Positions 3,904 through 60,311 of a stretch of DNA of 64,000 nt are shown here, in pieces. The notes under the pieces are model-generated. The model saw only the letters and a program-made list of their open reading frames with translations, had not been told where the DNA came from and searched no databases. The DNA is from a virus. The stretch spans positions 78,860-142,859 of IMG/VR virus record IMGVR_UViG_3300044846_002555. One strand, given 5' to 3'. Positions within the stretch are counted from its first letter, which is position 1. Each line of letters begins with the position of its first letter. Both the position numbers and the translations under genes were made by a program.

Positions 3904-4929
3904 TTAATTGACACTTATTATTTCTACTCTACAACATCCACAACCACTAATACTAGCGTTACCAATTGAGAATAAATCCTGACTTGATGTGTAAGTACAA
4001 GGTGTTAATGGGTCGTTTTGTGTTATTGTCGTTGTTGTGTTTAATATAATATTGTCTGAAGACGTAAAATTTAACGAATTCCAACTTTCGGTATAATAAT
4101 CTAAATAATTAACTAAATTTTGGCAACCTTGTATTGGATTATAATCAGTGTTAGTTGTTGTTAAACCACTTGTTGTTAGTGGAATAGAAACATTATTTTT
4201 AGATAATATAGTATTAGTCGTTAAAGTTGCTGTGGTAGCGCTTGGTGAATAATAAAAAGTGTTATAATGTAATATGTTAAAATTAACCGTAATACCACTT
4301 GGTAATGCCGGAATTACACTAAAAGTTGTTGTGTATTGTTTAGTTAATGTTGTATTTGTGTTAACTGGATTTGTTATTGTTGTATTTAATTTTAATTGAT
4401 ATAATGTCGGAGGTGCCGGCGCATTCAATGTCACGTTATTACTATTAGTATTACCACTCGAATCAATAACCTTAACACTATATATTCCTGAACACAAATT
4501 AGTAAATGTTGGGGAATTAAAATATGTAATACCATTATCAATTGAGTATTGATAAGGTGGATAACCTCCCGACGCGGATACCATTAAATTACCATCACAC
4601 GTACAAATTGGTTGATTAACACTAAAAGTCAATGAGTTAACTCCTAATGGGTTACAAACCCCTTCATTTACTACCACAGTCCCGTTGGCTCCTAATATAT
4701 ACCAAGAGTTAAGCGGGGGTACTGATGATGGTAATGAAGAAAACATCAAATAAGATAAATTACCACCTGTTAGTTTCCATTTATTAATAGAAGTGTCCCA
4801 AGTGATTAAATAAGTATAATCGTCTGACACCCATTGATTGTAATCATTAGAATCAACACCATAAGGGTTAAAATGTATTTGTAAATTATCTATACTTGAA
4901 TTTAAACAAAAATTATATTCTATTTCCAT
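3904..4929 (-). CDS. SprB-repeat-containing virion protein
   Basis: SASGGYPPYQYSIDNG...FTNLCSGIYSVKVIDS SprB-like repeat; start moved to MEIEYN, 2 nt after the upstream stop. Confidence 0.6.
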   Translation of the reverse strand: MEIEYNFCLNSSIDNLQIHFNPYGVDSNDYNQWVSDDYTYLITWDTSINKWKLTGGNLSYLMFSSLPSSVPPLNSWYILGANGTVVVNEGVCNPLGVNSLTFSVNQPICTCDGNLMVSASGGYPPYQYSIDNGITYFNSPTFTNLCSGIYSVKVIDSSGNTNSNNVTLNAPAPPTLYQLKLNTTITNPVNTNTTLTKQYTTTFSVIPALPSGITVNFNILHYNTFYYSPSATTATLTTNTILSKNNVSIPLTTSGLTTTNTDYNPIQGCQNLVNYLDYYTESWNSLNFTSSDNIILNTTTTITQNDPLTPCTYTSSQDLFSIGNASISGCGCCRVEIISVN

Positions 4930-57620: not shown

Positions 57621-58364
57621 ATGACAACTACCACTACTACAACCATTTCAAGAGTTAGAAATTACGAAGGTTCTGACAAATTTTTATTAAATCTTAAATC
57701 ATCTTTACAAAAATGGGGTAATTTAACTCCAAAACAACTTGAATTCGCTGAAAAAGCACTTAAAAGTGTTCAAACTGTAAATGTTGAGACTATGTCTGAA
57801 GATTTACAAAAGATTGCGAAATACGATGGTCCAAGTGAATTTGTTAATGATATCAAAAGTAAATTAATGAAGTACGGAACTTTGTCTGATAAACAGGTTA
57901 ACGCGTCTCTTAATCAAATTCAAAAAGATATTGATAAGGCGAACACTCACAAAATGAGAATTCCTACTCCGGGAGAGACTATTACTGTTGGACGTAAGAT
58001 TGGACAACAAATGAAGGAAACTTATGGTTTAGAGTTTAACCCAATGATTATTGATATCACTAAGTTGTTAGCGGTTTCACCAAAGGCGGTTAAGTTCTCA
58101 GGGAAGATGACAACAGGAAGAAGTAAAGTTTGTAGATGTTGTGCTAAAACATTGACTGATGAGTTCTCAATGTTAACCGGAGTTGGAAAAACTTGTGCAA
58201 CACATATGAGAATCCCTTACATCACTGATGTAACTCAAGCTGACAGATTCCGTGAGGATTACTTGAGAAGAGTAGATGAGATTGGTGAAATGGAGTTTTG
58301 GGTGCCAAAAGCACAATTGAAAAAATGGGAAGGTAAAACAGAAGTAGTATTACAAATGATATAA
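57621..58364 (+). CDS. DUF6011-like zinc-finger protein
   Basis: CRCCAKTLTDEFSMLTGVGKTCA; duplicated LTPKQ/LSDKQ modules. Confidence 0.65.
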   Translation: MTTTTTTTISRVRNYEGSDKFLLNLKSSLQKWGNLTPKQLEFAEKALKSVQTVNVETMSEDLQKIAKYDGPSEFVNDIKSKLMKYGTLSDKQVNASLNQIQKDIDKANTHKMRIPTPGETITVGRKIGQQMKETYGLEFNPMIIDITKLLAVSPKAVKFSGKMTTGRSKVCRCCAKTLTDEFSMLTGVGKTCATHMRIPYITDVTQADRFREDYLRRVDEIGEMEFWVPKAQLKKWEGKTEVVLQMI

Positions 58365-58702: not shown

Positions 58703-58757
58703 TTTGACTTTTGAAAAAAAATGACTATAATATACAAACAAACAATAAAACAAATTT

Positions 58758-59195
58758 ATGAACGTTAAAAAAGCTCTTAAAGAAAAAAACCGATTGGTTA
58801 AAGAAATCCAAGAACTTTATGTTAGATTGTCTCAGTACAATTCAGTTGAGGTTGGAAATGTGAGACCATATTCTCCTAAAGATATGCTTGAGCAAATCAA
58901 TGAGAAAAGTAATGAGTTAGTGGAACTTAAAACCAAAATCCACAAGGCTAACACTCCGGTGTATGATAAAATATTCAGATTGTCTGAATTAAAATCTACA
59001 ATCTCAAGATTAAAATCTTTGGATTGTTCTGAAGGTGTGAGTAATGATTACTATTCAAGAAATAGAGAGAATCCACCGGTAAAAACTGCTGAGGTATCAG
59101 TGGTTGATAGAGATGAAATGGTTAAAGTAATGGAAGGAATGATTGAAGACCTTCAGGATATTTTGGATAACCATAATCAGAATACCGAAATATAA
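58758..59195 (+). CDS. DIP1984/DUF6847-like coiled-coil protein
   Basis: KKALKEKNRL...YNSVEVG...LVELKTKIHKAN...LQDILDNHN pattern. Confidence 0.65.
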   Translation: MNVKKALKEKNRLVKEIQELYVRLSQYNSVEVGNVRPYSPKDMLEQINEKSNELVELKTKIHKANTPVYDKIFRLSELKSTISRLKSLDCSEGVSNDYYSRNRENPPVKTAEVSVVDRDEMVKVMEGMIEDLQDILDNHNQNTEI

Positions 59196-59196
59196 T

Positions 59197-59385
59197 ATGG
59201 GTGGGGATGTAGAATTTGATAAATGTGATTTTTGTCAAATTGAAAAACCGGTAGGTAGAACATATTTACGACCAAGTAAGTATGTTAAACCTGAAAATCC
59301 GGAGGAATATCTAAAATTAGATAATGAAGGAAATTATTTCATCATCGTTAAAACTTGTTTTGATTGTGGTGAACCTAAAATATAG
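59197..59385 (+). CDS. small zinc-finger protein
   Basis: CDFC...CFDC; ATG 1 nt after the upstream stop. Confidence 0.55.
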   Translation: MGGDVEFDKCDFCQIEKPVGRTYLRPSKYVKPENPEEYLKLDNEGNYFIIVKTCFDCGEPKI

Positions 59386-59576
59386 TTCAGAGTTCGGGAG
59401 AAATTTAATAAGACAAGATGGTAACTACCATTTCCTTACAAATTATTCAGAGAGCATTGATAAATGATTGTGATAAAGACGGACATTAAAACCTCAAGAT
59501 TCAAATTTTCAAACCTAAACGGTCAAAACTTAAAACTCTTTTAGTATTTTATTATTGAACTTCCAACCTGACTATA
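59381..59576 (+). ncRNA. candidate ~195-nt structured ncRNA
   Basis: ~25-bp end-to-end helix, internal hairpin, periodic YAAA tract, terminator immediately 3'. Confidence 0.6.
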
Positions 59577-59578
59577 AA

Positions 59579-59606
59579 AAAACCCCTTGAGAAATCAGGG
59601 GGTTTT
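59579..59606. terminator. bidirectional terminator
   Basis: aaaaccccttga-gaaa-tcagggggtttt. Confidence 0.85.
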
Positions 59607-59612
59607 GTATTT

Positions 59613-60311
59613 TTAGAATCTTATTTCGTAATTTAAGTCAACACTTTGTTCCTCTTCGGTGTTATAATTAAAGTCAAAGAATATTGTTTTATTACCTGAA
59701 TTAAATTCCCAACTTCCTTGAGCACCTTCATTATTTTCCCATCCTGCGTGATTACCATTTAAAATTGAATATAATAATTCTTCAATAGGTTTTGGTATGT
59801 CTTCTTGTTCTCCATCAACAGTCATATCATCTTCAATATAACCATCGTCACCACCACCACTAAAATCAACTCTTGCATCTCTACCATCTAAATAAGTAAA
59901 TAATTCTTCAACGGCTTTTGCGGCATCTTCACCATATTCGTCTTCAATATTTTCTAAAGTATATTCATTACCATATGGGTCAGTTCCATAGATAGTTTCA
60001 TAAGCGTTGATAATTAAACTTTTTTCTTTACAATCAATCTCAACTTCAATTCTTTGTGAACCATCACATTCATTAAAATGATTTATAATTGATTCGTCAT
60101 CAACTAATTTTTCAATAAGTTCATCTATTCTATCATAACCTTCTATACCTCCATTTACATCACGGGAATACCATCTATCATCTTCCCAATCTTTGTCACA
60201 AGCTGATAAATAATATGTTTTATAAACACTATCGGCTCCGTATGAGCGACAATAGTATGCGAATAGTTGTAAGGTTTTTAATTCATCCGGTGTTAATTGT
60301 GGTATATTCAT
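59613..60311 (-). CDS. DUF6878-like protein
   Basis: VDFSGGGDDGYIE...GWENNEGAQG. Confidence 0.65.
   Translation of the reverse strand: MNIPQLTPDELKTLQLFAYYCRSYGADSVYKTYYLSACDKDWEDDRWYSRDVNGGIEGYDRIDELIEKLVDDESIINHFNECDGSQRIEVEIDCKEKSLIINAYETIYGTDPYGNEYTLENIEDEYGEDAAKAVEELFTYLDGRDARVDFSGGGDDGYIEDDMTVDGEQEDIPKPIEELLYSILNGNHAGWENNEGAQGSWEFNSGNKTIFFDFNYNTEEEQSVDLNYEIRF

Follow-up and report, generated by a model that had tools for sequence, protein, structure and literature searches.

Ro60 (Rsr) and Y RNAs (YrlA/Yrn1) are encoded together in rsr-yrlBA-rtcBA RNA-repair operons (PMC7790460; bioRxiv 10.1101/312249). The locus described here likewise sets a protein gene side by side with its putative cognate RNA, in the range of ∼100–200 nt and with ends that form a closing stem. 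It occupies positions 58,703–59,606 of a 64,000-nt window (the whole stretch of DNA analysed, positions 78,860–142,859 of the IMG/VR virus record IMGVR_UViG_3300044846_002555; all coordinates below are positions in this window), and between a promoter and a terminator it carries a gene for a 145-aa protein of the DIP1984 fold, a 62-aa open reading frame (ORF) with two CxxC motifs, and a structured RNA. We read the region as a dedicated protein–RNA pair, that is, a ribonucleoprotein (RNP) made from one transcript, in which the protein would bind an unpaired tract of triplets spaced ∼7 nt apart (the heptad tract), and we put the probability of this reading at about 0.6. The window is the right-hand portion of a 142.9-kb viral record and is AT-rich (∼30% G+C). 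Because its nearest relatives are IMG/VR contigs of 214–318 kb, several of them complete and one with direct terminal repeats, the source virus is a giant phage from freshwater metagenomes; a blastn search of the locus against 50,697 GenBank phages gave no match.

The resemblance to Ro60 and Y RNAs includes canonical DIP1984 genes (those scoring above the NCBIfam cut-off), whose RNAs carry a tRNA-like T-loop hairpin and in a few cases adjoin rtcB or rtcR. At the phage locus, in contrast, the RNA has no Rfam match to Y RNA or YrlA and lacks a tRNA-like module, and the protein is unrelated in fold to Ro60. The TROVE domain (PF05731) was not found in the window record or in four related phage records (three complete), in a search that gave matches in control genomes.

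Evenly spaced triplets are read by the oligomeric proteins HutP and TRAP, HutP recognizing UAG plus 4 nt and hence a 7-nt period. The phage RNA presents YAA plus 4 nt, six to seven times, in single-stranded RNA, but the analogy is mechanistic only: the proteins are unrelated in fold, neither HutP nor TRAP is among the structural matches of the phage protein, and the likeness is limited to triplet spacing. The RNAs bound by HutP and TRAP are 5' leaders that control termination, whereas the phage RNA is a clamped 3' element. Type III toxin–antitoxin (TA) systems (ToxIN, CptIN, TenpIN) also place a small protein gene beside a repetitive non-coding RNA, often on mobile elements and in phages, with tandem ∼34–36-nt antitoxin RNA units upstream of an endoRNase toxin; the phage RNA, unlike these, lies downstream of a gene for a helical-bundle protein, as a single folded unit with a 7-nt period. 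Bacterial small RNAs (sRNAs) derived from 3' untranslated regions (3'-UTRs) share with the phage RNA the position at the mRNA 3' end and the common terminator. Such sRNAs act by base-pairing through short seeds and usually measure 50–100 nt, whereas the phage RNA, at ∼195 nt, is closed by a long covarying helix and is tied to one protein family across phyla.

The closest described family is DIP1984/DUF6847, with structure 3KDQ, which the phage protein resembles in size, in its four-helix plus beta-hairpin fold and in sequence pattern. Canonical DIP1984 genes are likewise trailed by a structured RNA with an unpaired heptad tract; the phage protein scores under both curated cut-offs and represents a divergent viral sister group. 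The published mentions of the family that a search found are annotation labels only ('DIP1984 family protein', formerly 'septicolysin', on Acinetobacter plasmids), with no function found.

Conservation and structure of the RNA

IMG/VR was scanned with the protein and then with a protein alignment, which gave >200 relatives, and we examined 96 loci and three contigs of metagenome-assembled genomes (MAGs). Downstream regions of the examined loci form 42 k-mer clusters, one of which (L001) groups loci merely by a CxxC ORF that fills the first downstream nucleotides. In 40 of the remaining 41 clusters, an ORF-free stretch of 150–220 nt directly follows the gene and has a common layout: a 5' arm at or on the stop codon, often a hairpin, then (C)UACAA(A/C)UU, a GAUG/UGAU-rich segment, a G-poor run of UCAA type, the near-invariant GUCAAAACUUAAAACUC, a 3' arm and usually a terminator. 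Cluster L099 is a variant that keeps the closing arms and the UCAA units. The proteins encoded upstream of the RNA are 45–95% identical among the ∼40 clusters. Gene plus RNA behaves as an autonomous unit, as neighbouring genes vary between clusters and most clusters have their own sigma-70-like promoter.

A protein-blind scan of IMG/VR with the 17-mer box that ends the tract returned 79 matches, of which 33 (plus one at a truncated locus) are full elements, each directly after the gene. Two are duplicated RNA 3' ends, and the other matches are chance occurrences inside unrelated coding genes, without any other feature of the element. Each of five giant-phage records searched whole (three complete, 287–318 kb) has exactly one copy of the gene, and in four of them a covariance model (R1, below) detects a single RNA next to it; the model gives no match in the fifth (G706, locus L014), where the gene is followed only by a divergent stretch. 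The same model identifies 59,381–59,577 as the sole copy in the window and in the 142.9-kb record. The downstream stretch that the original prediction had singled out in this one locus is, on the strength of ∼40 clusters and the protein-blind matches, a conserved and covarying RNA strictly tied to the gene. The parts of the locus are as follows.

58,704–58,709 (TTGACT) and 58,726–58,731 (TATAAT), + strand: promoter with a 16-nt spacer, 11/12 matches to the sigma-70 consensus
58,758–59,195, + strand: gene for the 145-aa DIP1984-fold (DUF6847-like) helical protein, from profile and structure matches
59,197–59,385, + strand: 62-aa CxxC...CxxC ORF with motifs CDFC and CFDC, from the ORF list, no family match
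59,381–59,577, + strand: structured RNA element, whole, covariance-model match of 182.5 bits
59,383–59,400, + strand: 5' arm of closing helix P1 (TAGT, CAG, GTT, GGGAG, with single-nt bulges), beginning on the stop codon of the preceding ORF
59,416–59,433, + strand: hairpin P2, AGATGGT-aact-ACCATTT, from RNAfold, 4/4 modelled pairs with double changes
59,437–59,444, + strand: conserved motif UACAAAUU after P2
59,457–59,482, + strand: UGAU-rich conserved segment UUGAUAAAUGAUUGUGAUAAAGACGG, with near-invariant GAU/UGAU columns in a 40-sequence alignment
59,486–59,538, + strand: G-poor, mostly unpaired tract with 6–7 YAA triplets at ∼7-nt spacing
59,522–59,538, + strand: near-invariant box GTCAAAACTTAAAACTC at the end of the tract, from conservation among relatives
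59,560–59,576, + strand: 3' arm of P1 (CTTCC, AAC, CTG, ACTA, TA), from RNAfold and covariation
59,579–59,606, + strand: intrinsic terminator, a 12-bp stem followed by a T run

Folding of the window element with RNAfold reproduces the pairing proposed earlier from the letters, joining 59,381–59,400 to 59,560–59,576 and forming the hairpin at 59,416–59,433. The inner 8-bp, AU-rich extension proposed along with it (59,404–59,411 with 59,552–59,559) also forms in the window fold, but its register varies across the family. The minimum free energy (MFE) is −35.1 kcal/mol (z = −2.29; 6/200 dinucleotide shuffles fold equally well), and over 40 cluster representatives z averages −1.79, with 20/40 below −2, a reasonable mean for an RNA with a 3' half that should stay open. 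As expected for the predicted RNA, its energy thus lies beyond that of dinucleotide shuffles and its closing helix is conserved and covaries in relatives; the decisive support for the structure is comparative and not the folding energy.

Because the arms have no common sequence between clusters, MAFFT with RNAalifold on mixed phage alignments recovers the outer 7 pairs only. In an alignment-free test on 40 cluster representatives, every 5' arm was paired with the 3' arm of its own element and with the 39 others, and the duplex energies were compared. Cognate duplexes average −22.7 kcal/mol vs −13.0 ± 4.1 for non-cognate ones, and the cognate arm ranks best of 40 in 22 cases and among the top three in 36, the exceptions being close relatives with common arms. 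The + strand folds better than the reverse complement in 37/39 informative cases, and G-U pairs make up 99 of 1045, which marks the structure as an RNA of the gene strand and not as a DNA palindrome.

The covariance model R1, built on 16 sequences for which 15 P1 and 4 P2 pairs were set by hand, retrieves 35 elements, mostly non-seed, and 59,381–59,577 is its sole match in the window (182.5 bits). The R1 alignment is fitted to the model; pairing in it covers 79.7% of cells vs 30–47% when partners are slid by 1–3 columns, and the covariation score is 0.295 vs 0.03–0.10 for slid partners; all 19 pairs (15 in P1, 4 in P2) have changes on both sides in relatives, and 0/500 shuffles reach any observed measure. 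The sequences of the P2 hairpin vary between clusters. A column-pair scan for further helices or a pseudoknot gave a possible 3-bp GAU/GUC contact between the UGAU segment and the box, with little covariation.

Periodicity of the tract was measured as YAA autocorrelation in the 70 nt ending at the box in 40 relatives, against the shuffled expectation. Recurrence is 5.8-fold at lag 7, 2.3-fold at lag 8, 2.9–3.8-fold at lags 14–15 and 2.1-fold at lag 21, and the G content of these 70 nt is 10.5%. In the window, the tract at 59,493–59,538 reads CUCAAGA/UUCAAAU/UUUCAAA/CCUAAAC/GGUCAAA/ACUUAAA/ACUC, and TRF reports a period-22 array of 2.3 copies at 59,486–59,536. The mean unpaired probability is 0.61 in the tract vs 0.33 in the rest of the element.

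Two other interpretations of the element or its parts were rejected, the first as a general feature. The P2 loop could have been an anticodon mimic, given a 7-nt CUGCAAA loop in some relatives, but loop size and sequence are inconsistent across clusters; and a coding role for the element conflicts with stops in every frame, a median longest ORF of 21.5 aa and element lengths spread evenly modulo 3. Rfam 15 at gathering level gave no match over the whole window (including 6S, Y RNA/YrlA, tmRNA, tRNA and metagenome-derived motifs), at E up to 10 it gave terminator-driven noise only over 59,150–59,700, and ARAGORN found no tRNA or tmRNA.

Some relatives carry a second, partial RNA 3' end (box, 3' arm and terminator) 1–2 kb downstream, at L127:7114–7200 (the contig of L002) and L154:12321–12400 (the contig of L007), with partial copies also at L001 ∼4770–4836 and L007 5700–5797. 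These partial copies directly follow an inserted cassette, either a gene for a 280-aa lipoprotein-like product or one resembling sugar epimerase/dehydratase genes, and it therefore seems that insertion involved a duplication of, or a recombination at, the RNA element's end.

The DIP1984-fold protein and its canonical relatives

Against NCBIfam NF038048 (DIP1984_fam), the 145-aa protein scores 35.2 bits (E 1.3e-8), under the curated cut-off of 70 bits, and against Pfam DUF6847 (PF20935) 25.2 bits (E 1.7e-5), under the gathering threshold of 27 and over profile positions 2–60 of 141 only. Relatives L010, L009 and L016 score 14–26 bits against NF038048, and PF20935 is found in 19–23% of the members of the protein's ESM-Atlas neighbour clusters. 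An AlphaFold2 model built from 41 relatives (pLDDT 91.6) has four long helices and a beta-hairpin, and its only clear structural match is 3KDQ, a 'functionally unknown conserved protein from Corynebacterium diphtheriae' (Foldseek probability 1.0, E 8e-4, TM 0.69–0.78; VIA Z 13.2, rmsd 2.8 Å, 140/145 residues); the next-best match (Z 8.0) is at the level of generic helical bundles. On this superposition, the protein is a divergent viral member (sister group) of the DIP1984 fold, which bears out the kinship to DIP1984/DUF6847 that had been recognized from its sequence pattern.

The phage protein and canonical DIP1984 proteins have in common an N-terminal xKxALxxKNxL, a central I..AN turn and a C-terminal Q...N. 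A conserved basic end is formed by K4, K8, K10 and N11 of helix 1, the LKTKIHKAN turn and C-terminal N140/T143. PDB sequence searches with the protein and with its profile returned coiled-coil and uL29 noise only, PHROGs a single weak match to a function-unknown family (phrog_31998, E 0.002, 19.7 bits), and PADLOC two noise-level matches (tails of AbiA and LmuB) that do not recur in relatives. The search for fused or longer forms gave one match only, a dubious 496-aa call. In locus L098 (G001:C61:6596–7249, on a contig binned with a Polynucleobacter MAG), the DIP1984-like ORF is 221–233 aa long and has two overlapping profile matches (1–96 and 32–144), which points to an internal partial duplication.

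Canonical DIP1984 genes were collected from GTDB genomes, plasmids and metagenomes. GTDB sampling of two phyla found them in 1/301 and 4/401 genomes; 368 plasmid records have one, mostly from Acinetobacter and also from Enterococcus, Picosynechococcus and actinomycetes; and 80 of 489 metagenome relatives were kept. All inspected canonical loci have at least 200–320 nt of unannotated sequence after the stop codon, with the conserved motifs GGUAGC, GCGAGCACAA and AUGCCCAGCA..GUCACAA..UACUACC..GUGCUGA. A GGGUUCGAAUCCC hairpin resembling a tRNA T-arm is present in 31/88 canonical loci, and a near-invariant GAGGGYGGGnnnGGGGA tail follows the closing helix of the bacterial RNAs (L215–L281, alignment A8 columns 289–306). 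The phage RNA has neither the GCGAGCACAA box nor the T-loop-like hairpin nor the tail. A G-quadruplex and a tertiary contact are possibilities for the role of this G-tract tail; in the phage class, from which it is absent, some 5' arms are G-rich instead (GGUUGGGGGAGAGGGGAGG in L076).

From 19 diverse canonical examples, RNAalifold predicts 26 pairs without any structure being supplied, and compensatory changes are seen in 24. The resulting fold of this ∼220-nt RNA consists of a closing helix in three parts, the T-loop hairpin and one inner hairpin, and leaves a ∼75-nt tract of the 3' half unpaired. The triplets ACA and CAC are repeated there with lags of 7, 14 and 21, at ∼9 times the level of shuffles, a figure inflated by shared ancestry. 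A crude cognate-arm test with regex anchors gave −15.7 vs −12.8 kcal/mol for canonical RNAs, and Rfam gave no match on the canonical loci. Phage and canonical RNAs are alike in topology: a closing helix surrounds a 5' half with hairpins and a 3' half with the open heptad tract. The two classes are analogous in position and architecture and probably homologous.

The 132 ORFs flanking the 80 metagenome loci are diverse, with RtcB encoded three times and RtcR twice. This frequency is far above chance for single-copy genes and hints at a link to the RNA-repair operon of PMC7790460; RtcB is absent from the phage genomes searched. At L182 (1211–1422, 1498–2300), a canonical gene and its RNA directly follow tRNA-Gly(CCC) and tRNA-Val(UAC), a typical island insertion site, and the RNA contains a T-arm-like GUGGGUUCGAUCCCCAC hairpin. 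At one metagenome locus (L257:1457–1560), an insertion of ∼90 nt of GGGTTCAGAGTTCAGGGTTC-type repeats separates the RNA from the stop codon of the DIP1984 gene.

Interpretations of the gene–RNA pair

The original prediction had proposed a dedicated RNA partner for this protein. The RNA is real, conserved, covarying and linked to the gene; that the two physically bind is what we infer. Co-transcription, processing, direct binding, oligomeric read-out and function are likewise proposed. Gene and RNA would be transcribed as one RNA from promoter to terminator, the 3' part of which would fold so that P1 clamps its ends and sequesters the stop-codon region. Cleavage of the irregular P1 duplex of 20–30 bp, by RNase III for instance, might then free the RNA from the mRNA tail, and the protein may bind the heptad units, perhaps via its conserved basic end and probably as an oligomer with one protomer per unit, in a read-out after the manner of HutP or TRAP. 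The change of the repeated unit with protein subfamily, from YAA in phages to ACA/CAC in canonical RNAs, fits co-evolution with the adjacent protein. The placement of some canonical members beside rtcB or rtcR points weakly to a role in RNA damage, RNA surveillance or counter-defence.

Several observations weigh against the pairing of protein and RNA in an RNP. Binding is deduced from adjacency only, and the protein is not basic overall (23 K+R vs 25 D+E), its positive parts being the N-terminal helix and the LKTKIHKAN turn only. As to the RNA, single-sequence folding energy lies only moderately beyond that of shuffles, with z > 0 in 3/40 elements, and fitting the R1 alignment to its model favours pairing. 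The phage covariance model matched none of 75 canonical loci, so that topology and position, and not sequence, are what speak for homology between the two RNA classes, and the link to RtcB/RtcR concerns ∼5/80 canonical loci and none of the phage genomes.

The element runs from stop codon to terminator, and is therefore part of the mRNA, and it always lies on the same strand beside the same gene, all of which would also suit a cis-acting 3'-UTR element that serves the upstream mRNA only, through 3'-exonuclease protection, support of termination or an autoregulatory protein site, with no trans-acting RNA. We consider this rather unlikely: simple stabilizers need neither a ∼55-nt conserved, single-stranded periodic tract nor a near-invariant 17-nt box, the topology is kept in very distant bacterial relatives, and several lineages tolerate an extra ORF between gene and RNA, so that close coupling to the gene's own stop codon is not required. 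It also seems unlikely that the RNA is a stand-alone regulator or decoy whose heptad tract acts as a sponge for a host RNA-binding protein (e.g. a hexameric one on YC- or A-rich repeats) or a nuclease, with the neighbouring protein a helper or simply co-regulated. In favour of a decoy, a repeated, unpaired sequence poor in G is what known protein-sponge RNAs also have, the protein lacks a strongly basic character, and an Rnl1-like ligase in 3/5 related phages suggests conflict over host RNA-targeting systems; however, the RNA is linked one to one with a single protein family across phages, plasmids, several bacterial phyla and different hosts, which would be difficult to account for with a host-specific target, and its repeated unit changes with the protein subfamily.

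The type III TA system (or abortive-infection pair) that the original prediction had offered as an example, in which the RNA would neutralize a toxic protein, is very improbable. A small protein and a repetitive RNA do form one unit here, and PADLOC gives a weak match to the C-terminal end of AbiA (E 0.0016, 15 bits), but the PADLOC matches are at coiled-coil noise level and absent in relatives. The RNA follows the protein gene and does not precede it behind a terminator, its repeats are 7 nt and not processed ∼34–36-nt units, with no tandem ∼36-nt units upstream, and the protein is confidently modelled as a helical bundle, not an endoRNase; 3KDQ is its only clear structural match, and no ToxN-like chain is among the matches listed. 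Still more remote is an element acting at the DNA level, such as a site of recombination, a replication origin with iterons or a MITE-like inverted repeat. The sequence occurs once per genome, with inverted arms at its ends that enclose short AT-rich repeats, and in some relatives duplicated 3' ends flank inserted cassettes, as such an element might leave them; yet many G-T (G-U) pairs of the arms are A-C mismatches on the other strand, the + strand is the better-folding one in nearly all informative cases (37/39), arm bulges occur at fixed places, the element sits inside a promoter-to-terminator unit, and its canonical counterpart is found on small plasmids with replicons of their own.

Beyond the window, we tentatively propose, while thinking it somewhat doubtful, that DIP1984-fold proteins and their downstream heptad RNAs are a widespread, undescribed RNP class of bacteria, plasmids and giant phages, in which an oligomer would read 6–7 triplets 7 nt apart on a stem-clamped RNA cut from its own mRNA tail, the phage form being streamlined for infection, e.g. 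for RNA protection or repair against host RNA-cutting defences. The RNA is not described, and no function is assigned to the protein, in Rfam 15, Pfam, NCBIfam, PHROGs, PADLOC, the PDB or the searchable literature; the system is new relative to published knowledge, and the window holds a clean, compact phage representative. It is rare for a new class of structured RNA to have hundreds of members and one constant protein partner, and the Ro–Y RNA, 6S, tracrRNA/omega RNA and retron RNA classes are each said to have opened a field. The family is widespread (368 plasmid records, 489 metagenome relatives and >200 viral contigs) and was long mislabelled 'septicolysin'; with a cognate folded RNA, an anonymous domain of unknown function becomes a testable RNP hypothesis, for which the compact, AU-rich phage version suits biochemistry and structure work. 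It also adds a conserved non-coding RNA to giant-phage genomes, in which, to our knowledge, very few are known.

Transcription unit, neighbouring genes and the CxxC ORF

The promoter-like TTTG (58,703–58,706) and TATAATAT (58,726–58,733) noted in the original prediction overlap the sigma-70-like promoter at 58,704–58,731, and these, the 145-aa and 62-aa genes, the non-coding gap and the terminator were all located correctly. An A/C-rich leader without a Shine–Dalgarno sequence follows the promoter; most relatives have TTGAC(T/A)...TATAAT-like pairs 45–55 nt upstream of the start codon. The stretch 59,386–59,578 is without ORF. The terminator at 59,579–59,606 ends the transcription unit and also faces the convergent gene at 59,613–60,311, and at its position relatives have GC-rich hairpins with compensatory changes.

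Upstream, the gene at 57,621–58,364 has a 247-aa product in which a DUF6011 zinc-ribbon-like motif is recognized (E 1.5e-6); the product of the convergent gene is 232 aa long and has a DUF6878 domain at its C terminus (E 2.3e-12). Distant relatives keep neither of these uncharacterised genes beside the module. Far from the module, three of the five phage genomes encode a T4 Rnl1-like RNA ligase (PF09511, E 1e-19 to 1e-22; G704:C1:303951–304448, G705:C1:77634–78200 and G707:C1:70267–70776), which fits phages that deal with cleaved tRNAs.

The CxxC gene, which had been taken for an operon member of the system, is a sporadic passenger and not part of it. Close relatives L002–L006 (90–95% protein identity) lack the ORF through a clean indel between short AATAT repeats and keep the RNA, which there abuts the stop codon of the DIP1984-like gene; the ORF is present in some relatives at 72% identity and absent in others at 74%. 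Among 20 viral loci with a CxxC homologue, 11 have it between gene and RNA and 9 elsewhere, the latter with neither gene nor RNA within 900 nt. Pfam, NCBIfam and PHROGs gave no family assignment for its product. Homologues with 60–87% identity lie in other giant-phage contigs (L293–L301), away from the DIP1984-like gene and the heptad RNA, which suggests a small, independently moving zinc-ribbon gene.

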